A DNA stretch of 64,000 bases, taken from contig CAYLOJ010000004.1 in assembly GCA_964385285.1 (NCBI GenBank), positions 7,736 through 71,735 of the forward strand, read 5' to 3'. The notes below the pieces were generated by a model. The model saw only the letters and a list, made by a program, of their open reading frames with translations, was not told the origin of the DNA and ran no database searches. Positions 2,960 to 59,346 of this stretch are shown piece after piece (the first letter of the stretch is position 1; each line of letters starts with the position of its first letter). A program made the position numbers and the translations under genes. The stretch comes from an uncultured Gammaproteobacteria bacterium. Lineage in GTDB: Bacteria > Patescibacteriota > Patescibacteriia > UBA9570.

Positions 2960-4240
2960 TCACACAATCAATTTACAATCCTGAGAAAATGGATTGAATA
3001 AAATATGGGTATTCAAAATTTCGGTAGCTAATGCTGTGCGTTTCGCAGCATCATCACTATCGAAGGTCAGTTCCCATACTACACCTTTACTGAGGTTGGC
3101 AACCGACTTCAAGCCGAACCGTGTATGTAAGGTATTGGCAACCGCTTTACCCTCGAAATCATCTGAAAACCGGACGAGGAATGATAAAGTGTTTGGATTT
3201 TGGGTTGGTGTTTGGCTATAACTTTCTTTACTCGTATTCAGTAATTCCCCACTCTCAATTAGCGTTGGTAAAATTTCTTGCGTATCTTTAATGGAATCAT
3301 CATACCAAATCTCCCAATGTGTTTTCCGTGTGACTTTTACAGGAAACCCTTTTTGTTGCAAGGCTAATTCAACGGTTTTAGCAGCATTATCTGTAATTTT
3401 TAGATCGACGAAAAGCTGTAAACAATTACCAGATGTCTGATACGATTCGATCACAACTGGTTCGGGCTTCCATTGAATTTTATAATCGTGGGTAGGAGGA
3501 TGTTCTAACCAAGTGCGCAAATTATTGAATAACGATTCCCCGTTGCGTTCTAATCGCTCCGGATGTGGCATGTAGGCCACCACGTTACCAGCCGGATTGC
3601 AGAATCCAGCAATGCCCCAGATTGCGCCATTCGGTGTAGTCGGAAACTCATTAATCTCCTCACCTGTCTCGGTACAATATTTGAAAATGATTTGACCGTT
3701 CTTTTCCAGTTCAACCAGTAAGTCGGTTGGGAAAATAAATCGGCCTTCTCCATTCGCAACAGTCGCTGGCACTACTGCGCCGGCTGCTAAATCCATCGTT
3801 ACGCAACTACGACCAGTCGGTGCAGTATTCTTAATATAAATCGTGTCGTGATAAAAACCCGTACCGATAATTTGCCCGCCCTTCACCCGGGTATTCATGG
3901 CGACGGCACCCGCTAAGACATCCGCATCTAAACCAGGAATCAAGCCAGTTTCCACTAAGACCTGACAACCATTACAAATACCAATGACGGGTTTGCCCGC
4001 AGCAGCCTCCTTTTTAATGTATTCCATGATGGGATCCAAAGCCGCAATAATGCCAGCTCGACTACGATCTTCGTAAGCAAAGCCACCGGGCAATAGATAC
4101 GCATCGTAGTGGCCTTGTTCCAATTTCTCACGTTCATTCCAACGAACATATTCTGGCTCTAACCCAGCATTTACTAAAGAGCGATAGGTCTCGCCTTCAC
4201 AATTTGTGCCTGGAAAAATAACAACGGCTACGCGAAACAT
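2960..4240 (-). CDS. purQ: FGAM synthase glutamine amidotransferase subunit PurQ fused C-terminally to two tandem PurS-like domains
   Basis: The N-terminal MFRVAVVIFPGTNCE...GICNGCQVL...HPERL matches the PurQ class I GATase. The C-terminal ~170 aa contain two ~75-aa repeats resembling PurS (KITDNAAKTVELALQQKGF...; FEGKAVANTLHTRFGL...). Confidence 0.8.
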   Translation of the reverse strand: MFRVAVVIFPGTNCEGETYRSLVNAGLEPEYVRWNEREKLEQGHYDAYLLPGGFAYEDRSRAGIIAALDPIMEYIKKEAAAGKPVIGICNGCQVLVETGLIPGLDADVLAGAVAMNTRVKGGQIIGTGFYHDTIYIKNTAPTGRSCVTMDLAAGAVVPATVANGEGRFIFPTDLLVELEKNGQIIFKYCTETGEEINEFPTTPNGAIWGIAGFCNPAGNVVAYMPHPERLERNGESLFNNLRTWLEHPPTHDYKIQWKPEPVVIESYQTSGNCLQLFVDLKITDNAAKTVELALQQKGFPVKVTRKTHWEIWYDDSIKDTQEILPTLIESGELLNTSKESYSQTPTQNPNTLSFLVRFSDDFEGKAVANTLHTRFGLKSVANLSKGVVWELTFDSDDAAKRTALATEILNTHILFNPFSQDCKLIV

Positions 4241-5265
4241 ACCTCTTTTTTACCTGCCACTACTTCACCGATTAAATATGTTTTCAGGTCTGCATGCTGC
4301 TGTAATTCAGCAAACACTGCGTCGCGTTGCGCTGCCGGCACGACAACTACCATACCAATTCCCATATTCATTGCGGTATACATATCTTCTTCTGGCACTT
4401 CACCAAACTGCTGAATAGCTTCAAAAATCGGTAGAATCTCCCAACTGCCTTTTTTAATTTGTGCGCAACAACCTTCTGGCAAGATCCGTGGAATATTTTT
4501 CACTAAGCCGCCACCGGTAATGTGCGCTAACCCACGCACATCGTATTTAGCCAAAATTGGTAGTAGATACTTGGTGTAGTTTTTATGTGGCTTCATCAAC
4601 ATGGCACCAATGGATTGTGGCAATTCTGCAACCACATCACGGACACTGAATTTTTTGATATCAAAGAATACTTTACGTGCCAAGGAATAACCATTGGTAT
4701 GTAGCCCCTCAGAGCCTAAACCAATCAACGCATCACCGACTTGAATTTTAGAACCATCAATCATCTTGGATTTTTCTACAACCCCCAGTACAGCTCCGGC
4801 TACATCCCATTCACCTTCTTGATACGTGCCTGGCATTTCGGCGGTTTCCCCACCCACCAACGACATTCCATATTGAGCACATTCTTCAGCCATGCCGCGC
4901 ACTAACTCCGCCAAGATTTCTGGTTCTAGCTTTGCAGTGGCAACGTAATCGAGTAAGGTAAGTGGCTTAGCACCCTGACACAACACGTCATTGCAACTAT
5001 GTGCAACAATATCATGTCCGGCCTGCGCATACATATTCATCATTCCTGCGACCGCCATTTTAGTACCAACACCATCAATGCTTTGCACTAAGACCGGTTC
5101 TTTATACTCCTTGGCTAGATCGGTGATTTCATACAAAGAGCCAAACAAACCTAAGCCCGTTAACACGCGGTGATTGAATGTTTGTTTGACGATCGGAATA
5201 ATTTTGCGAATGGCGTCATCGCCGACCTCGACATTGACTCCGGATTCTTTGTAGGTGATAGCCAT
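4228..5265 (-). CDS. purM: Phosphoribosylformylglycinamidine cyclo-ligase (AIR synthetase)
   Basis: SIDGVGTKMAVA and GGETAEMPG motifs. 345 aa. Confidence 0.9.
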   Translation of the reverse strand: MAITYKESGVNVEVGDDAIRKIIPIVKQTFNHRVLTGLGLFGSLYEITDLAKEYKEPVLVQSIDGVGTKMAVAGMMNMYAQAGHDIVAHSCNDVLCQGAKPLTLLDYVATAKLEPEILAELVRGMAEECAQYGMSLVGGETAEMPGTYQEGEWDVAGAVLGVVEKSKMIDGSKIQVGDALIGLGSEGLHTNGYSLARKVFFDIKKFSVRDVVAELPQSIGAMLMKPHKNYTKYLLPILAKYDVRGLAHITGGGLVKNIPRILPEGCCAQIKKGSWEILPIFEAIQQFGEVPEEDMYTAMNMGIGMVVVVPAAQRDAVFAELQQHADLKTYLIGEVVAGKKEVCFA

Positions 5266-7096: not shown

Positions 7097-7978
7097 CTAT
7101 GGTAATAATAAAGTTGCACGACGCATACTCCAACAGCCAATCGACACCCCCACAAACCAAGAGGCGGGGTGCACATAGCGCGTCGTTAATTTCACGGCCA
7201 ACGCAGTTGTCTTTCCACCTACTCCCATCGGTCCGATATCGAGCGCATTAATTTTTTTCAATAAACGTTTTTCAATGGTCGCTAATTTAGGAATGGGATT
7301 ATGTCCGGTAATCGGTTGCAGATGACGATTTTTGGCACGATAACTTGATTCTTCCATATTGCCACAAACTGCTGCGCCAATAATATACGGTGGGCAACCA
7401 CGGCCTTGGGCTTTAATCACAGCGTCTACAATACATTTCTCAATTCCTTCTAAGTCTCGTTCTGCACCAATCGAACGATCTGGCAATTGATATTGACGTG
7501 AAACATTTTCAGAACCGCCGCCTTTTAATAGAAGTTGGATCTGGGACTGATCCTCAGTTTCCTTAAAATAGATAATGGGATAATTTCCAATCACCTTCCC
7601 TTGAATCACATCAAAAGCATTGGCGCGGAGCGGCACCTCCTTGGTCGCAATCGCGGTAGCCTCTTTGATGATTTTCTTTAAATCTAATTGCGTGTATTTT
7701 CCACTTTGATATTTTACATACAACAAAGGAATACCTGTATCTTGGCATAAGGGACGCGTCTCCGTTTCAGCCATTTCAATATTGGTCAGCATGGTTTTCA
7801 GGACATGCTTAGCGCGAGCGTTGGTTTCTTTGCGCAAACCAGATTTCAATCCGTCTACAACATCTTTAGGAAGATGAGTGACAGCCACGCGATACATCTC
7901 AACAATAGCAGCAATGAGTTCACGCCGCGATGGCTTGTTTCCAGCCAGCGTTAGAATATTTCCGTTGGTAGTAAGCAT
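7097..7978 (-). CDS. Class I fumarate hydratase, alpha (N-terminal domain) subunit
   Basis: CQDTGIPLLYVKYQ is the Fe-S hydro-lyase (FumA/TtdA) signature. The arrangement is two-subunit, archaeal-type. Confidence 0.75.
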   Translation of the reverse strand: MLTTNGNILTLAGNKPSRRELIAAIVEMYRVAVTHLPKDVVDGLKSGLRKETNARAKHVLKTMLTNIEMAETETRPLCQDTGIPLLYVKYQSGKYTQLDLKKIIKEATAIATKEVPLRANAFDVIQGKVIGNYPIIYFKETEDQSQIQLLLKGGGSENVSRQYQLPDRSIGAERDLEGIEKCIVDAVIKAQGRGCPPYIIGAAVCGNMEESSYRAKNRHLQPITGHNPIPKLATIEKRLLKKINALDIGPMGVGGKTTALAVKLTTRYVHPASWFVGVSIGCWSMRRATLLLP

Positions 7979-12577: not shown

Positions 12578-12602
12578 TAAAAAAATCCCCGGTTTCGGGG
12601 AT
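12578..12602 (-). terminator. Rho-independent terminator ending the island transcript before folD
   Basis: Stem atccccg/cggggat with loop gttt at 12585-12602. It is preceded on the + strand by an A7 run, which is a T-run after the stem on the minus strand. Confidence 0.55.
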
Positions 12603-12745
12603 GAATATCCTCATTTATATATATCACGCTCCAGGAGCACCGTCAAGCAGGCTCGTCAGGCTTAAATGGGGATTCAATGCTGGATAGCAATTCTTCAAAT
12701 TTGATAGGTATATTCCGTAAAAGTATATTTGTATAATTGTGCGGG

Positions 12746-14158
12746 TCAGCTTGTATGATTATGCTCATAAACCTGATTCTGCAAATAGAGGCAATTCCAT
12801 AAATTAAAACTTAAGAACTTACAAAACTCATTAATAAACATCTTGTCTTCGATCGTATAATTCTTGTGATTAATGCGGTCACTTAAGCAGAGCAAAGAGA
12901 TTAATTGATTATTATAGATGATGGGAAATATATTTTGGCAATGAAAATGATTTTTGACAGTTTGACTGACAAAGAAATTACTTTTCTGAAACTCCATGAA
13001 CCATCCTTCATCTTCTGCTATCTTGGAACGATTATGTGGGTAAACAGACTGAAAACTTCCGATATGTTTGTTATAGGTATAAATTGCTATGAATTCGACA
13101 GGCATTCTAGTCATGAAATGATCAACTGCTAAACGTACAAAAGCGTCTAGAGTGGGTATAGAATCAAGAATTTTCTGCTCATCAGCAGTAAGTTCATATA
13201 AATCAACTTGGGTTTGTGGAATGAAATAATGCACAACAATTTCTGCACATTTTTTAATAGGCCAAAATAAAATCAACATCACTGAGGAAAGTATTAATAA
13301 TATCAAGAAATAATTAGTAAATTGTGATACTAGAAGAAAATACAATATGATCACTATAATGATCTCTACCAGGAAACATAGGCAAATCAACAAGGCAAAT
13401 CTTCGAATATGATAGCGAATGCTGAAAATGCGATAACGTAATATAGCATAGGCAATAACGGCAGAAATAATACTTACACAAATTCCGCTTACAACTTGGG
13501 GTATGGATACAGCCAAAACTTCACTATGCGAATAACCTGCCCAAAATGTTTTTGCAATCAAAGGAATAACGACGTTTGCAGAAACAGCAATGAGGGTATT
13601 TAAACCGAAAGCAAATACTAATAGCTTGGCCTGCTCCTTTTTACGACCTATCGAGCGCATATACCCAAATGCCAACAGGATTATTAGAAGTGTTAATTGA
13701 AATAGTACTGCCGTGTACAATGGAATAGTGAAGCGAGCATTAGCTAGATAGAATAAGCTTGATTCTGAATCATAAATTTTTTCACCAACAATAAACTCTG
13801 GTATGTATGACATAACTACAAAAAAGGTCGTAATGATCAGTGTAATCCTTATGTGAAACGCTTTAAGATATTGCCTATCAAAAAAAATCCACAACAGCCA
13901 CAAAGTAGTAAACATGCCAGCAACCCCAAAGGCAAATGTTGATGCATTAAAGAAAAAATTAAATAGTGCGCCACGCTGTATAAAGAACGAAATGTACATG
14001 ACAATTTCCCATCCAATACTAAAAAACAGATTCACTAAATATATCTTTACTACTGGTGAGTGTAGATGGCGACTATTATTATAAAACCAAACCCCGACTG
14101 CTAGATCAAAGGCTACGCTGGCTAAAAATGTATATTGCATTAATGAGACCAATTCCAT
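12746..14158 (-). CDS. Polytopic membrane protein (~9 predicted TM helices) with a ~170-aa C-terminal cytoplasmic domain (possibly GAF-like/sensor). AT-rich.
   Basis: Repeated hydrophobic 20-aa segments across the first ~300 aa. AAGGAAG SD 7 nt upstream. GC clearly lower than its neighbours. Confidence 0.6.
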   Translation of the reverse strand: MELVSLMQYTFLASVAFDLAVGVWFYNNSRHLHSPVVKIYLVNLFFSIGWEIVMYISFFIQRGALFNFFFNASTFAFGVAGMFTTLWLLWIFFDRQYLKAFHIRITLIITTFFVVMSYIPEFIVGEKIYDSESSLFYLANARFTIPLYTAVLFQLTLLIILLAFGYMRSIGRKKEQAKLLVFAFGLNTLIAVSANVVIPLIAKTFWAGYSHSEVLAVSIPQVVSGICVSIISAVIAYAILRYRIFSIRYHIRRFALLICLCFLVEIIIVIILYFLLVSQFTNYFLILLILSSVMLILFWPIKKCAEIVVHYFIPQTQVDLYELTADEQKILDSIPTLDAFVRLAVDHFMTRMPVEFIAIYTYNKHIGSFQSVYPHNRSKIAEDEGWFMEFQKSNFFVSQTVKNHFHCQNIFPIIYNNQLISLLCLSDRINHKNYTIEDKMFINEFCKFLSFNLWNCLYLQNQVYEHNHTS

Positions 14159-14276
14159 CCTACTTCCTTACCATAATCTCAGTATCCCAGCAAGTAATTA
14201 CATATTCTGGCAAATTCTGATCTTGCCAAAATAAATAAGCCACTGTGGCGGCCTATTTATTGGACTTAAAACTAAG

Positions 14277-14507
14277 TTATTGCACTTCCACCTGAGTATC
14301 AACCGTTTTTTCGGTGATCTCTACCGTGGTCTCTGAAACAGCGTTGATGATTGTCTCATCTTGAACAATACCTTGGTAATCAGCACTATCTGATAGTGAT
14401 TGTATGGGTGACCCATCCATCAACATGATGATATTGACCAATAGCGCAACCGATAATCCCGCCACAACTACCGCGATCACAGTCAGGGTAGTCAGCGAAC
14501 GTTTAAC
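14277..14507 (-). CDS. Small single-pass membrane protein (start chosen at MVKRSL)
   Basis: N-terminal hydrophobic helix LTTLTVIAVVVAGLSVALLVNIIMLM followed by an acidic tail. Confidence 0.35.
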   Translation of the reverse strand, partial: VKRSLTTLTVIAVVVAGLSVALLVNIIMLMDGSPIQSLSDSADYQGIVQDETIINAVSETTVEITEKTVDTQVEVQ

Positions 14508-18537: not shown

Positions 18538-19854
18538 TTAGTCGAGTACGGCAATGTAATAAATGGTGTTGCTACAACTGCCTTCAATCCCAGAATTGGG
18601 TACACGCAATTTTAAATAGGTATCTTTAATGGCCGCAAAGACCTCGCTTGTTCTGGCTACTAATGCCAAATTTACATTCGTATCCGTGTTTGAGAGTGCT
18701 TGGTCCCCTACGCCATAGGTGAATCCATTCGTAAAGGATAGGTGAATATTACTGGTGGGTATGGTTCCACGTGTACAACTAATATCGCCACTGGCGGATT
18801 GAGTCGCATCAATATTACGATTACCCGTGTTCGTAAATGCGAGCGTCTGTTGAGGTGAATCAACGCCGAGCGTTAATGTGCCGTAATTCACAGAAGCACC
18901 GACATCTAAGGCTAACAAACTATTCATTTCAAACGCATCGCTAGAATTTGCAGTGGCCGTAGCATCATCAGTCACTTTGACAAAGTTAGTCCAATTCGTA
19001 GACGCACCTGGAGAACCGGCGTCCGTCGCATCGGCATAATATTGAATCGGAATGACTGCTTCATAATCAATCGTAGTATCAGCACCACCTGAACAATTAC
19101 TGAGTGTAAAGGCAACAGTATTGGTATCCAACTGATAACAATTATTATTATCGGCACTGCAACTTGTACCGCCCGCAACATCACTTTTATATGCCGTGAC
19201 TGCCCATTGCGTTTTTGCGTCAATCTGCGAACAGCCATCGGCATCGGTCGCTGTTCCTCTAATATATAAATTGGTAGTTGAACCATCCGTTAAATTGAAA
19301 GATCCTTGATCACTACCGCCACTCGTTGTCGTTGTGATTACAGAATCCACGGATGGTGTGGCATTCCCACTGCTGCTGGCCGTGGCGCAAATTTTATTCG
19401 TGTAGGCAGCGGCGTCTCCGATATGCGCATTTGTGGTGACCGCAGACATGGAAGCAATGGTTGTATCATACCCTGCACAATTGGTTGCTTGATAACCAAC
19501 TGAAACCGTACCGCTACTTACGGATAAGCAGGCATTATTTGCGTAATTCATTTGTGTTTTCTGCTCGACATGGGCATTCGTGACGTCCGACAATTTTGCA
19601 ATCGTATCATAGGTACCAGAACAAGATGTGCCTAATCCTGCTACACCAGAACAACAGACCAATTGACTGTAATTGGCTTGACTAGCTAATTCAGCATGCG
19701 CATTACTAGTACCTGCCATGCGCAATACTACTGTACCACTAGGGCAACTTGTACCTACTGTGCAAGATAACGTGCCGGCTAGTGCAACCGGTGCGATGCC
19801 GCAGACTGCAATAAGAACCATGCCAACAACAAGAGATCGGTATTTACCAGGCAT
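18538..19854 (-). CDS. Secreted/surface protein, family A (Cys-rich N-terminal extension with three [ST][ST]NAH repeats)
   Basis: Signal peptide MPGKYRSLVVGMVLIAVCGIAPVALA. CSADNNNCY, NWTNFVKVTDDATATAN and a C-terminal SGIEGSC block are homologous to 14515..15480. Confidence 0.55.
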   Translation of the reverse strand: MPGKYRSLVVGMVLIAVCGIAPVALAGTLSCTVGTSCPSGTVVLRMAGTSNAHAELASQANYSQLVCCSGVAGLGTSCSGTYDTIAKLSDVTNAHVEQKTQMNYANNACLSVSSGTVSVGYQATNCAGYDTTIASMSAVTTNAHIGDAAAYTNKICATASSSGNATPSVDSVITTTTSGGSDQGSFNLTDGSTTNLYIRGTATDADGCSQIDAKTQWAVTAYKSDVAGGTSCSADNNNCYQLDTNTVAFTLSNCSGGADTTIDYEAVIPIQYYADATDAGSPGASTNWTNFVKVTDDATATANSSDAFEMNSLLALDVGASVNYGTLTLGVDSPQQTLAFTNTGNRNIDATQSASGDISCTRGTIPTSNIHLSFTNGFTYGVGDQALSNTDTNVNLALVARTSEVFAAIKDTYLKLRVPNSGIEGSCSNTIYYIAVLD

Positions 19855-21175
19855 ATACGCGCACCTCTCCACGGCCACCAGCGCCACCATTGCCACCAGA
19901 TGTTGTGCCGCCACCGCCACCGCCGCCACCTGCACCTAACGCACCATCTCCTCCGATACTACCCGCGCTATCCGTATCTCCACCACCACCGCCGCCAGAA
20001 CCACCACAAGCACCTTTGTTACTGGCTGCACCATTACCACCAACTGCTGATGTGGCACCGCCAATACCGCCAATAGCACCACCACCAGAGGCATAACGAC
20101 CAGTAGTACTACCAGCTCCACCAGCTGTACCGGCGTTGGCTGTTGTTACACCACCACCAGCGCCACCACCAGGACATCCATACATCGATGATCCGCCAGT
20201 ACCGCCCGCTGCAGGTACAGCGGAGCTGCCTGCGCCACCGCCGCCACCCCACTCCGCACCAGCACCTGTTACTCCAATAGCTCCCTGTTGACCTTGACCA
20301 CCGAATGCAGCTGCAGCAGAAGCTCCTGGAGCACCGCCGGAAACTGCAGTCGTTCCTGTACCTGTTATACCTGCGCCAGCAGTACCGCCACCGCCGCCAC
20401 CAACTGAAATATTGGCTGCGATGCCGCCTTCACCGCCACCGCCACCGCCTGCAAAACACAAAGTGCCACCGAATGTCGAGTTTCCACCAGCGCCACCGGC
20501 TGTACCAGAAGCACTACTGCCACCGCCGCCGGCAGTTCCACCAACACCCACATTAACAGATTCTGTTGAACCAAGATCCGCTGCACTAAAGGTGCGTTCA
20601 GTCAGTGCGCCACCGCCGCCGCCGCCACCGCCAATACGTGCAGAGGCTGCCGCTCCACCGTTGCCGCCGCCACCGCCGCCACCGCCGCCAATACAGACTA
20701 CTTTTACAGTCGTAACCCCGGCTGGTTTATTCCAGGTGTTGGCGCCTGTTGCAGTAAAGATTTGGACATCTCCTATCTTTCCCCAAGTACCGTTTCCTTC
20801 CCAAAACGACCCGGCACCCGCATTCGTACCCCCGTTTAAATTATTTACTGATAGATCTCCTGTCACCCCATTTGCCAGATTCACTTGTGACCAGGCAGGA
20901 TTATTGCTACCACCGGTATTGGATAAATAACGGGTGGCGGTAGTATTTTTTGCCAAAGCAACAATGGTGTTCGCCGCGGAACCATATAAGAGATCTCCCT
21001 GAGCAATCGTATTTAAACCTGTACCGCCTTGCGATGGCGTGACCAAAACATCACCAACTTCCGACCACGTATGTCCAGGATTCGGAGCAGCTGCCATCGC
21101 AATTTTAATGACAGAGGTGGCAAGACAAATCAATAAAAAAACGGATAGGATTGGATTAAAATATTTGAGTCTCAT
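19844..21175 (-). CDS. Secreted glycine-rich protein: ~150-aa N-terminal globular domain followed by ~280 aa of poly-Gly/Ala/Thr/Ser tracts
   Basis: Signal peptide MRLKYFNPILSVFLLICLATSVIKIAMA. Runs of G8-G10. Very high local GC from GGN codons. Ends RGEVRVYAW. Confidence 0.55.
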   Translation of the reverse strand: MRLKYFNPILSVFLLICLATSVIKIAMAAAPNPGHTWSEVGDVLVTPSQGGTGLNTIAQGDLLYGSAANTIVALAKNTTATRYLSNTGGSNNPAWSQVNLANGVTGDLSVNNLNGGTNAGAGSFWEGNGTWGKIGDVQIFTATGANTWNKPAGVTTVKVVCIGGGGGGGGGNGGAAASARIGGGGGGGGALTERTFSAADLGSTESVNVGVGGTAGGGGSSASGTAGGAGGNSTFGGTLCFAGGGGGGEGGIAANISVGGGGGGTAGAGITGTGTTAVSGGAPGASAAAAFGGQGQQGAIGVTGAGAEWGGGGGAGSSAVPAAGGTGGSSMYGCPGGGAGGGVTTANAGTAGGAGSTTGRYASGGGAIGGIGGATSAVGGNGAASNKGACGGSGGGGGGDTDSAGSIGGDGALGAGGGGGGGGTTSGGNGGAGGRGEVRVYAW

Positions 21176-39194: not shown

Positions 39195-39267
39195 GAAAAT
39201 GCGTTTAATCACATCATCCTCCTAGGTTGAATGGGGTGCGTGCTCCCCTTGTGATTGTTGTAGCTCG

Positions 39268-40212
39268 TCAGTAGCCGCAGTCCTGGCACCAGTCGACGTG
39301 GTCCTGGATGTCCGGAAGCTCGTCGTAGAGCTGATCACCCGGGCACTCGGTAGTGCCATAGTCGCGATGACCCTTGATCACCGTACTGTTGGTGATGCCA
39401 GCTTCGAACATCACCCGCGCCACCACCGCTTCGAGCGTCTGAAGCTCCGTGGCGGTCGGCGTGACGCTGGTGAAGTCGCCCACCAACGAAATACCGACGT
39501 AGCCGGTGTTGTAGCCACTCGTGTGTGCACCCACGCACCACATGCTCGAGAACGAGCCGGTGCTGGTACACATGCGACCCTCGTAGATGTGCAGGCCGGC
39601 TGCGTCCTCGCACACCATCATCTGGTAGCCGATGTCACCCCAACCGTGATCAGGGCCGAAGATGTGGTAGTTCGCCACCGCAGCAACATAGGCGTCGCAG
39701 TCCGTGGTGTCGGCGGCCGTGTGGTGAATCGTCACCGCAATCGGCGCGTGCTCGCTGGGCGGCCAGTCGAGACTATCCGAATACCAACCGTAGCCGTAGT
39801 CGGCGTTCAACTCATCCCCCACGTCATAGGACGTCGGGAAGTTCGACACGCTAGGCCAGGAAGGAATCGGCGGATAGTAGCCAGCGACGATCGCGTCCTC
39901 CACGTCTGCAGAGTTGCTCCAGTCGGTCACGCCACTGCTCTGCGTGATGAGGCTCGCGCCCCACACGCTGCGGTCGGTCGTCATCAGACCCTGCCCGCAC
40001 AGCGCGGCAGCATCTGCACACTCGTCCGGCGCAGTGTCGGTGTCCGTGTTGGTGTCGCCAGTGTCTCCGGAATCCGTGTTGGTGTCCTGCGAATCGGTGT
40101 GCGTGTCCGAGTCGGAATCACCCGAGTCGGTCGACACACCAGTGTCAGTGGGAAAGGGCTTCGTGCCCATGTCGTCCCCATTGTTGCAGGCGAACAGCAG
40201 AATGAACGTCAT
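39268..40212 (-). CDS. N-acetylmuramoyl-L-alanine amidase (PGRP / amidase_2 family), putative lipoprotein with an Asp/Thr-rich linker. Horizontally acquired (high GC).
   Basis: IAVTIHHTA, NYHIFGPDHGWGDIGYQ, GAHTSGYNTGYVGISLVGDF and GHRDYGTTECPG are amidase_2 signatures. The N-terminus MTFILLFAC has a lipobox-like LFAC. GC >60% versus ~45% background. GGAG SD. Confidence 0.8.
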   Translation of the reverse strand: MTFILLFACNNGDDMGTKPFPTDTGVSTDSGDSDSDTHTDSQDTNTDSGDTGDTNTDTDTAPDECADAAALCGQGLMTTDRSVWGASLITQSSGVTDWSNSADVEDAIVAGYYPPIPSWPSVSNFPTSYDVGDELNADYGYGWYSDSLDWPPSEHAPIAVTIHHTAADTTDCDAYVAAVANYHIFGPDHGWGDIGYQMMVCEDAAGLHIYEGRMCTSTGSFSSMWCVGAHTSGYNTGYVGISLVGDFTSVTPTATELQTLEAVVARVMFEAGITNSTVIKGHRDYGTTECPGDQLYDELPDIQDHVDWCQDCGY

Positions 40213-40305
40213 TACGATCTCCAGGGTGGATGTACTTTGCTGAGAGGCTGTTGAAGAATAACAAGCCTACGATGACTACACAAATTTAGGAGGATTCGTG
40301 ACAAA

Positions 40306-58264: not shown

Positions 58265-58340
58265 TTCGGGCCCAGTAATGGGGATAATGAATTAAGAAGC
58301 TTATTATAAAAACTCTGCGCCTGGTGTCAATAGCTTTGCC

Positions 58341-58355: not shown

Positions 58356-58736
58356 ATGAAAACCGTTTTAGCCTTTGGCACCTACGACAAGCTCCACCCC
58401 GGACACCAGTTTTTTTTGGCAGAAGCTAAAAAATACGGTGATCGTCTGGTGGTGGTGGTAGCACGCGATAAAAATGTGGAACTAGTGAAAGGCAAACTAC
58501 CGCGCGACCCCGAACAGCTCCGTTTAGCGAATGTACAAGCTGTGGCTGTCGTGGATAGCGCCAGACTCGGCTATGAAGATTATAGTAAAAAAGAGCAGAT
58601 TATTAGCGAAATCCAACCTGATGTGATCTGCCTAGGTTACGATCAAGCCCCAAAATTCCGTTCCCCCGACCCTAACATTGAAGTAATCCGTCTACCCGCT
58701 TTTCATCCCGAGCTGTACAAATCCAGTTTGCTGTAG
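58356..58736 (+). CDS. Cytidylyltransferase-like nucleotidyltransferase (HxGH family; RibL/FAD synthase-like or CTP:glycerol-3-P cytidylyltransferase-like)
   Basis: AFGTYDKLHPGHQFFL, the (H/T)xGH motif. 126 aa. Confidence 0.6.
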   Translation: MKTVLAFGTYDKLHPGHQFFLAEAKKYGDRLVVVVARDKNVELVKGKLPRDPEQLRLANVQAVAVVDSARLGYEDYSKKEQIISEIQPDVICLGYDQAPKFRSPDPNIEVIRLPAFHPELYKSSLL

Positions 58737-58772
58737 TTTTTGGTTGACAGACCACCACGAGATCATTAAGAT

Positions 58773-58982
58773 GTGCGCGCCAACACGGAGGTTCCATTGG
58801 CACGTCGACACTGTGCAAAGCACAACAAGTACTACCGGCATGAAAAGTGTCCTGACTGCTTCCCGGACGCAGGGAAGCCGCGAAAGGTCTACAAGACCCG
58901 GCAGGTGACCACCTGCCGCAGCTGCAAGTCCGGGGTGCCGGCCGGCAGCGGTCGCTGCACGTCCTGCGGGACGAAGCAGTAG
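58773..58982 (+). CDS. Small zinc-ribbon protein (two CxxC pairs x2) inside a high-GC insert. GTG start; uncertain.
   Basis: HCAKHNKYYRHEKCPDC and TCRSCKSG...GRCTSCG. Strong GC3 bias consistent with real coding in a high-GC donor. Confidence 0.4.
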   Translation: MRANTEVPLARRHCAKHNKYYRHEKCPDCFPDAGKPRKVYKTRQVTTCRSCKSGVPAGSGRCTSCGTKQ

Positions 58983-59079
58983 GAGGAGGGGGGCGGTTGA
59001 TCATTCCAGATCGGCCGCCCCAACCATTCATTATCCCCAGACTTGTCAACCTTTTAACCATGTGATATCGTCTACCCCT

Positions 59080-59346
59080 ATGGCACATAAATCCGCAGCC
59101 CTTAAATCAATTCGAAAAACCGCTAAGCGCGCGATTCGTAACCGTACCAATAAGCGTGTCGTCAAGGAATTGACGAAAGCTAGTTTGGTCGCCATCAAGC
59201 AGAAAGAAGCGACTGCTTTGGAGAAAGTTCGCGCCGCCAGCAAAGCAATTGATAAAGCTGTTCAGAAAGGGACCTTGCACGCCAACACTGGTGCTCGCAA
59301 GAAATCTCGTTTGATGAAACAGTTGAACGCCCAGTTGAAGAAGTAA
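59080..59346 (+). CDS. rpsT: 30S ribosomal protein S20
   Basis: MAHKSAALKSIRKTAKRAIRNR...ANTGARKKSRL is the S20 signature. Confidence 0.85.
   Translation: MAHKSAALKSIRKTAKRAIRNRTNKRVVKELTKASLVAIKQKEATALEKVRAASKAIDKAVQKGTLHANTGARKKSRLMKQLNAQLKK

Follow-up and report, generated by a model that had tools for sequence, protein, structure and literature searches.

A GC-rich segment with a predicted zinc-binding mini-gene between a cytidylyltransferase-like gene and rpsT in a Kerfeldbacteria-like genome

How does a short stretch of GC-rich DNA with a small open reading frame (ORF) of its own come to lie just upstream of a ribosomal protein gene in a genome of much lower GC content? The question is raised by a 64-kb stretch of DNA (here the window; positions 7,736 to 71,735 of the forward strand of contig CAYLOJ010000004.1, assembly GCA_964385285.1) that is labelled as an uncultured gammaproteobacterium in GenBank and is placed in the Patescibacteriota by its GTDB lineage. 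The arginine decarboxylase encoded next to the locus is 75 to 90% identical to proteins from metagenome-assembled genomes (MAGs), several of which are labelled Candidatus Kerfeldbacteria (candidate phyla radiation [CPR]/Patescibacteria); the other MAG relatives carry titles that are less specific or apparently mislabelled. A reading of the letters without database searches, here called the sequence-only reading, had noted a jump in composition between a cytidylyltransferase gene and rpsT and had ascribed it to an insert bounded by inverted repeats. The jump itself was borne out: positions 58742 to 59052 have a GC content of 60.1%, against a window mean of 44.6% (standard deviation, 5% in 200-bp windows), and a high-GC core at 58773 to 59022 reaches 64.0%, flanked by AT-richer stretches of 36 nucleotides (nt) (39% GC) on the left and 57 nt (42% GC) on the right. 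On the evidence set out below, we regard it as fairly probable that this is an islet of the horizontal-transfer type, i.e., about 298 nt of DNA of foreign composition with a self-contained orphan zinc-binding mini-gene, placed after the stop codon of the cytidylyltransferase gene and before the native rpsT promoter.

Boundaries of the inserted segment

The left native neighbor of the segment is a cytidylyltransferase-like gene (58356 to 58736, forward strand) that encodes 126 amino acids (aa), ends in a TAG stop codon, and matches Pfam PF01467 (1.3e-10) and TIGR00125. The right native neighbor is rpsT (59080 to 59346, forward strand), which encodes the 88-aa ribosomal protein S20 (TIGR00029, 7e-17; PF01649, 1.5e-17). 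We compared the locus with three relatives in which these two genes are adjacent, represented by contigs L002, L030, and L042, whose cytidylyltransferase orthologues show 69 to 73% identity to that of the window. The spacer between the cytidylyltransferase stop codon and the rpsT ATG is 15 nt in L002, 15 nt in L030, and 45 nt in L042, versus 343 nt in the window. Since the spacers of the relatives are only 15 to 45 nt long, the additional DNA is a lineage-specific insertion between the stop codon and the conserved rpsT promoter. In the closest relative reached, L042 (S20, 89% identical; cytidylyltransferase, 73% identical), the spacer has no GC-rich ORF. Alignment with the relatives (alignment A2) places the start of the extra DNA right after the TAG stop codon, at 58737, and its end at about 59034 (±~7 nt), which gives a segment of about 298 nt with homologous flanks on both sides. 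The comparison of the region upstream of rpsT that the sequence-only reading had proposed thus finds the segment missing at this site in all three relatives that keep both genes adjacent.

To the right of the insertion, window positions 59042 to 59079 align without gaps to the L042 spacer, with 27 of the 38 positions identical. This stretch contains a native promoter-like site for rpsT (TTGTCA-17-TATCGT with a TG; 59043 to 59071, forward strand), which was detected by promoter scan and has a homologous counterpart at the same position in L042 (TTGCCA-17-TATCTT). Both sites end 8 nt before the ATG and carry a TG upstream of the second hexamer. More generally, only 7 to 8 nt separate −10 hexamers from the start codons of rpsT (window, 59043 to 59082; L042, 354 to 393) and of the arginine decarboxylase gene of L002 (2966 to 3031), and neither the rpsT nor the L002 decarboxylase start is preceded by a Shine-Dalgarno sequence. 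This pattern suggests leaderless or near-leaderless mRNAs in the clade.

The left junction recurs in a second assembly. Logan contig L001 (run SRR12487046, which may or may not be independent of the source sample of the window) is identical to the window over the 5′ part of the decarboxylase gene, the cytidylyltransferase gene, and the 90 nt of spacer that come next (L001 1290 to 1379, corresponding to window 58737 to 58826). It ends at window position 58826, 54 nt into the high-GC core, a stop that could be due to thin coverage of GC-rich DNA or to insert-free variants that made the assembly branch. In look-ups of exact proteins, only the cytidylyltransferase returned a contig, namely L001; the 69-aa ORF, a 138-aa frame antisense to it, S20 (two starts), HolA (two starts), and the decarboxylase had no record. 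A metagenome scan with the cytidylyltransferase recovered only distant relatives with at most 47% identity. The flanks of the insert showed no convincing homology to the spacers of a further relative, L006, as 18 of 1,000 and 971 of 1,000 shuffles scored at least as well.

The gene content of the neighborhood differs between relatives. In L006, the cytidylyltransferase gene and rpsT are separated by a frame of about 430 aa that is open on the other strand (3241 to 4542; mgtE-like judging by its translation alone). Two genes spanning about 2.4 kb lie between the cytidylyltransferase and decarboxylase genes in L030 (2734 to 4888; argF/argG-like from the translations alone), L003 has an apparently similar gap between the same two genes, and in L005 the cytidylyltransferase gene (160 to 537) is in the other orientation. 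Within the window, a 14-mer at the right end of the insert, ATTCATTATCCCCA (59026 to 59039, forward strand), has an exact inverted copy 747 bp away in the arginine decarboxylase leader (58279 to 58292, reverse strand), within a stretch of about 29 nt that L002 lacks. The pair, which brackets the cytidylyltransferase gene and the insert, has a BLAST E value of 0.067 for the window and no copy in the relatives. An operator, a trace of recombination, and chance are all conceivable readings of it. No transposition hallmark, integrase, transposase, tRNA, or repeat hallmark was found at the insert.

The putative small gene and its product

The ORF that opens with a GTG at 58773 and ends at 58982 has 69 codons, with GC fractions of 0.53, 0.57, and 0.80 at the first, second, and third codon positions (GC1, GC2, and GC3), and the core as a whole shows the same periodicity in this phase (0.55/0.58/0.80). 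The mean GC3 of the 53 open frames of at least 150 aa in the window is 0.41. The 69-codon ORF with a GC3 bias described in the sequence-only reading is hence present as stated. We further scored synonymous codon choice as a log-likelihood (log2 units per codon) under an island codon table drawn from five high-GC3 genes (three Kerfeldbacteria amidase genes, an oxidoreductase gene of L002, and a hypothetical gene of L039) versus the host table. The ORF scored +0.55 and the amidase gene of the window, itself part of the island table, scored +0.57, versus −0.42 and −0.28 for the native neighbors, in agreement with the earlier placement of the segment in the same anomaly class as the amidase. The 250-nt core thus resembles a high-GC genome in composition and in synonymous codon choice, and this composition is found only in one frame plus a hairpin. 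The 138-aa antisense frame was rejected as coding because its GC-rich codon position is the second.

The ORF contains no ATG, and only GTG and TTG are available as starts. The AT-rich first 36 nt of the insert hold a sigma-70-type promoter-like site (TTGACA-17-TAAGAT; 58744 to 58772, forward strand) with 10 of 12 consensus matches. The GTG at 58773 abuts the −10 hexamer of this site and would therefore lie upstream of a transcript made from it. A Shine-Dalgarno-like GGAGG (58787 to 58791, forward strand) precedes a TTG at 58797 by 5 nt, and this TTG is the likely translation start, which would give a product of 61 aa, 6.9 kDa, and a pI of 9.9 (58797 to 58982, forward strand).

The ORF is followed by the GC-rich hairpin that the sequence-only reading had described (58990 to 59021, forward strand), with a 13-bp stem that includes two G-U pairs, a 6-nt loop, the arms GGGGCGGUUGAUC/GAUCGGCCGCCCC, and a folding energy of −31.7 kcal/mol (z = −3.8). 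It shares the GC-rich stem-loop with intrinsic (Rho-independent) terminators but lacks the U-tract that follows the stem in these, and a terminator scan did not call it, its tail AACCAUUCAUUAUCC having neither a U-tract nor a T run. Terminator hairpins without a U-tract ("I-shaped" terminators) have been described for high-GC Actinobacteria, and the present hairpin resembles them in having a long GC-rich stem directly after a stop codon and no U run. It probably marks the 3′ end of the small gene or serves as its insulator; in a CPR host, it may do no more than stabilize the 3′ end or may do nothing. Within the stretch from 58982 to 59065, the sequence directly after the stop codon reads GGAGGAGG and includes a second GGAGG (58985 to 58989), 7 nt beyond which a TTG at 58997 opens a frame of 22 codons (MIIPDRPPQPFIIPRLVNLLTM) that spans the hairpin and closes with a TGA at 59063. 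This second frame is probably fortuitous.

The predicted 61-aa protein has seven cysteines and three histidines, from which two putative four-ligand zinc sites can be assembled: C6/H9/C18/C21 (C6-x2-H9-x8-C18-x2-C21) and C40/C43/C54/C57 (C40-x2-C43-x10-C54-x2-C57). The presence of two C-x2-[CH]...C-x2-C pairs is unique to this ORF among the short open frames of the 64 kb. Residues 40 to 61 (CRSCKSGVPAGSGRCTSCGTKQ) resemble a widespread zinc-ribbon repeat, CxxCGxxVPxGSxFCTSCGTK, as present in three proteins (P0002, P0004, and P0005; E values, 2.4e-5 to 1.3e-4). These were among six weak matches returned by an exhaustive phmmer search of 1.84 billion representative proteins, which gave no match at an E value of ≤1e-10 and no orthologue; none of the six is an orthologue, P0001 and P0006 being internally repetitive and P0003 being an unrelated multidomain protein. 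In Pfam, only sub-threshold zinc-ribbon matches were obtained, below the gathering thresholds (DZR, 13.9 versus 27.3 bits; Zn_ribbon_15, 14.4 versus 28.9; DZR_2, 11.7 versus 27), and NCBIfam, PHROGs, and PADLOC gave no family at a meaningful score. No ribosomal family of NCBIfam or Pfam, including the zinc-ribbon proteins bL32, bL33, bL36, uS14, and others, matched at an E value of up to 1, and no Protein Data Bank sequence matched at up to 10. A word-indexed protein search gave no candidate, searches of phages and plasmids (DNA search and tblastn) gave only chance-level matches, and back-translated scans of metagenome and viral contigs recovered no relative of the ORF.

The protein is thus an orphan by these comparisons, and only its C-terminal half is like a generic zinc-ribbon repeat. 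With generic zinc-ribbon domains (DZR, PF12773; Zn_ribbon_15, PF17032; and the CxxCGxxVPxGSxFCTSCGTK repeat proteins), it shares the repeat consensus at residues 40 to 61 and two knuckle pairs at the usual spacing (CxxC pairs about 10 to 15 residues apart). It differs from these domains in scoring far under the Pfam cutoffs and in a first site, CxxH...CxxC, that matches nothing. Unlike the repeat proteins, it is a stand-alone basic protein of 61 aa with no repeats or other domains and no orthologue in the collections searched. Genomic islets often contain small zinc-ribbon ORFs that are orphans. Any function assigned to the product from its ligand pattern is tentative.

High-GC3 genes in the clade

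The GC content of the window rises to at least 58% in only three stretches, 19731 to 20820, 39221 to 40230, and 58741 to 59110. The high GC content of 19731 to 20820 corresponds to the Gly-rich domain (PF21722) of a 443-aa protein (GC1/2/3, 0.63/0.70/0.35) and can be put down to amino acid content, the GC excess being at codon positions 1 and 2. Unlike this stretch, the amidase_2 gene (39268 to 40212, reverse strand; GC3, 0.80) and the small ORF at 58773 to 58982 have their GC excess at third codon positions. The stretch at 19731 to 20820 additionally shows strongly negative GC skew and overlaps the start of a 465-aa Thr/Ser/Ala-rich ORF. A deviation in the opposite direction from the high-GC islands is seen at 12601 to 14400, where the GC content falls to 31 to 39% with positive AT skew.

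Amidase genes of high GC3 were also identified in other Kerfeldbacteria-like contigs, namely L039 (4967 to 6022; 0.80), L040 (6001 to 7074; 0.84), and L041 (5001 to 6086; 0.72), so that the gene has a GC3 of 0.72 to 0.84 against a background of 43 to 47% GC in four lineages. It adjoins lexA in the window, L039, and L040, and an AI-2E transporter gene also lies nearby in L039; the neighborhood in L041 is different. Among the window, L039, and L040, LexA proteins are 81 to 87% identical and the amidases are 47 to 71% identical. At four-fold degenerate sites, lexA and the transporter gene show fractions of 0.32 to 0.44 identical, versus 0.26 to 0.28 expected from composition, i.e., they are near saturation; the amidase gene shows 0.51 to 0.56, versus 0.32 to 0.33 expected. 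Either amidase alleles have been exchanged or replaced, or the synonymous sites are constrained. Because the amidase gene keeps its GC3 at a syntenic site across lineages that are near saturation, high GC3 cannot be equated simply with very recent import. The suggestion that the amidase and the small ORF came from the same donor cannot be shown: found at the same syntenic position with a GC3 of 0.80 to 0.84 in other Kerfeldbacteria, the amidase is no fresh import, and the insertion of the small ORF cannot be dated from composition alone.

The small ORF shares with the amidase_2 gene and its Kerfeldbacteria orthologues a GC content of 62 to 63%, a GC3 of 0.80, and the same synonymous codon preference, and in both cases the elevated GC is a feature of the ORF only, with a GC-rich hairpin behind it. 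The two differ in that the amidase_2 gene has orthologues at a conserved syntenic site and distant actinobacterial relatives, whereas the small ORF has no orthologues and its site is empty in relatives. Comparable genes that are missing in the window are found elsewhere in the clade. A gene for an FAD-dependent oxidoreductase (DAO) lies just upstream of holA in L002 (217 to 1332) and L030 (28 to 870) with a GC3 of 0.71 to 0.74, and further high-GC3 islands encode a hypothetical protein of 248 aa in L039 (6214 to 6960; 0.83) and a CDP-alcohol-phosphatidyltransferase-like protein in L041 (7608 to 8315; 0.81). The small gene is accordingly one of the single-gene, coding-confined high-GC3 islands that recur in these genomes (L002, L030, L039, L040, and L041), which presumably entered originally by horizontal transfer from high-GC organisms.

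Origin of the segment and its meaning

Under the explanation that we favor, a Kerfeldbacteria lineage received an insertion of about 298 nt that begins right behind the stop codon of the cytidylyltransferase gene and ends shortly before the native promoter of rpsT. The promoter-like site at 58744 to 58772 would direct transcription from near position 58779, the GGAGG and the TTG at 58797 would lead to translation of the 61-aa protein, and the stable U-less hairpin would terminate transcription, stall it, or shield the 3′ end of the transcript, while rpsT would still be read, undisturbed, from its own conserved promoter 20 nt downstream. The product would most likely bind two zinc ions and serve as a small accessory factor that binds nucleic acid or protein. 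Frequent horizontal transfer and genomic islands are documented for Patescibacteria (PMC12455944), and the segment shares with such acquired genes and islands its atypical composition, absence from relatives, and variable neighborhood. It is unlike them in its size of about 298 nt with a single mini-gene and no integrase, transposase, tRNA, repeat hallmark, or donor, and in that only its coding frame and hairpin are GC rich, its promoter part being rich in AT.

Several observations weigh against this explanation. With no ATG, the GC3-rich frame extends as far as the left boundary of the core (58773), and the ORF could for that reason be the 3′ remnant of a larger gene. The amidase, which keeps a GC3 of 0.80 to 0.84 at its syntenic site while the native genes near synonymous saturation, makes high GC no proof of recency. 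No homologue and no donor lineage were found in any protein or DNA collection searched, and thus neither transfer nor function is demonstrated. A single-sequence AlphaFold model, built with no alignment, has a mean predicted local distance difference test score of 51 and is unreliable. The closest relative, L042, is still distant (S20, 89%; cytidylyltransferase, 73%), so that the event is not datable by comparison either, and the second assembly witnesses the left junction only and not the right.

The main rival, which we regard as unlikely, is that the high-GC core is the remaining, decaying 3′ part of a larger foreign gene together with its terminator, i.e., a recombination scar in which the ORF is fortuitous. 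It would account for a GC3-rich frame that starts exactly at the left composition boundary, for codons 1 to 8 before the TTG already having G or C at the third position in six of the eight cases, and for the choice of only GTG or TTG starts. There is also no homologue by which conservation could be shown, and long open frames arise easily in DNA of 64% GC, as the 138-aa frame open on the other strand illustrates. However, no longer protein ending in the ORF sequence occurs among the 1.84 billion representatives, the two complete four-ligand sites of canonical spacing are unique among the short frames of the window, and a GGAGG 5 nt before the TTG is combined with a strong promoter-like site just upstream. 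Streamlined CPR genomes would, moreover, be expected to lose useless DNA. A structured noncoding RNA or an rpsT leader in place of a protein gene has a very slight probability, even though the putative transcript of 263 nt folds at −117.4 kcal/mol (z = −4.0; ORF part alone, z = −2.7) and the ORF harbors, across the codons for RQVTTCR, a perfect 9-bp palindrome with a 2-nt spacer (CGGCAGGTG/CACCTGCCG; 58899 to 58918) that shows up as a strong internal hairpin when the mRNA is folded. The reverse strand reaches a z score of −2.2, which is nearly as good and is what palindromic GC-rich DNA should give, and the structure of the transcript looks like a property of such DNA rather than of a specific RNA. 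No Rfam family matched at the gathering score (best sub-threshold score, 17 versus 41.2 bits; chance level at E values of up to 10), a tRNA/tmRNA scan found nothing, the segment has strong three-base GC periodicity, and the rpsT promoter of the relatives lies 8 nt before the ATG with no leader. Chimeric assembly, in which high-GC reads of another organism were stitched into the CPR contig, is likewise most improbable: the source is evidently a metagenome-assembled genome, the composition switches sharply, and L001 ends within the high-GC part, but a chimera would need two joins within 300 nt that both restore native synteny, the left junction is also present in a contig from an independent assembler, and the analogous high-GC amidase island recurs, in the same syntenic position, in assemblies made independently from other samples.

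The two remaining alternatives, both raised in the sequence-only reading, concern mobility and function. A miniature inverted-repeat transposable element (MITE) could have delivered the ORF between the arms GGTTGACA (58742 to 58749, forward strand) and TGTCAACC, the latter at 59044 to 59051, one base to the left of the position first given. Such an element would fit the size of about 300 bp and intergenic position typical of MITEs, the perfect 8-bp inverted repeat near both ends, the TTTT beside both arms, and a shuffle test limited to the two AT-rich flanks (p ~0.02). On the other side, the alignment with the closest relative puts the right arm outside the inserted DNA, where it matches native L042 sequence (TGCCAATC) and forms the −35 hexamer of the conserved rpsT promoter; the adjacent TTTT is part of the native promoter spacer and for this reason not a target-site duplication. 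Only the left arm lies within the insert, and it is the −35 hexamer of the insert's own promoter-like site. The promoter scan and the L042 alignment hence favor the other option offered at the outset, that the repeats are two TTGACA-like −35 boxes. The case for the repeat exceeding chance is not convincing: the window has three occurrences of GGTTGACA versus 2.1 expected, and the 600 bp around the insert contain six perfect 8-mer inverted pairs versus 2.5 expected, a count equalled or exceeded in 42 of 500 shuffles. The third GGTTGACA, at 2331, was rejected as an element copy; it lies inside an ORF (1993 to 2967) across the codons for ...LILVDTKYEFG... and is coincidental. Unlike MITEs, the segment shows no target-site duplication (a local alignment of the two flanks was no better than shuffles, 224 of 2,000), carries a coding frame, and is single copy within the scope of the search for further copies that had been proposed, which found none in the window, the 42 loci, or the phage, plasmid, viral, and metagenome collections. 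We accordingly consider a miniature mobile insertion highly improbable. The same can be said even more strongly of the proposal that the product is a zinc-binding anti-sigma factor, an antitoxin, or a regulatory peptide tied to a neighboring gene. The product is small, basic, and cysteine rich, and a sigma-70-family-like ORF, identified from its translation alone, lies about 1.4 kb away. Nevertheless, the zinc-binding anti-sigma signature H-x3-C-x2-C is absent, the sequence here being H15-x2-C18-x2-C21, and there is no match to zf-HC2 and none of any meaning to another Pfam, NCBIfam, PHROG, or PADLOC family. No partner gene or adjacent cognate ECF sigma gene was found either; rpsT and holA lie between the ORF and the sigma-like ORF, a DUF4349 gene is directly downstream of the latter, and no toxin-like ORF is adjacent to the small ORF.

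Set against these alternatives, the horizontally acquired islet remains our preferred explanation, and what is new here is one more compositionally foreign ORFan mini-gene, such islets being routine in the genome dynamics of Patescibacteria. Since the ends of the insertion, behind a stop codon and before a conserved promoter, are placed with an uncertainty of only a few bases, it offers a clean case for the entry of a cassette into a streamlined genome that involves no mobility genes. A more far-reaching view, which is speculative and in our estimation rather doubtful, would make the small gene the minimal member of an undescribed class, namely single genes in which the frame alone has a GC3 of about 0.7 to 0.84 in Kerfeldbacteria-like genomes of 43 to 47% GC. 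The argument for such a class is that the amidase keeps its GC3, and more four-fold-site identity than its neighbors, at one syntenic site. Its cause would be either a gene flow that continues from a partner or host organism of high GC or an unknown force by which selected genes keep their codon composition, and the zinc-ribbon protein would then be a new host-interaction or ribosome- or RNA-polymerase-associated factor. If this were true, continuing flow from a high-GC partner would constitute a genomic trace of the episymbiotic host. The codon signature is common to the high-GC3 islands of the clade, one of which is long resident, and should it hold across whole genomes, it could give a lead on the organisms with which these uncultured bacteria are partnered.

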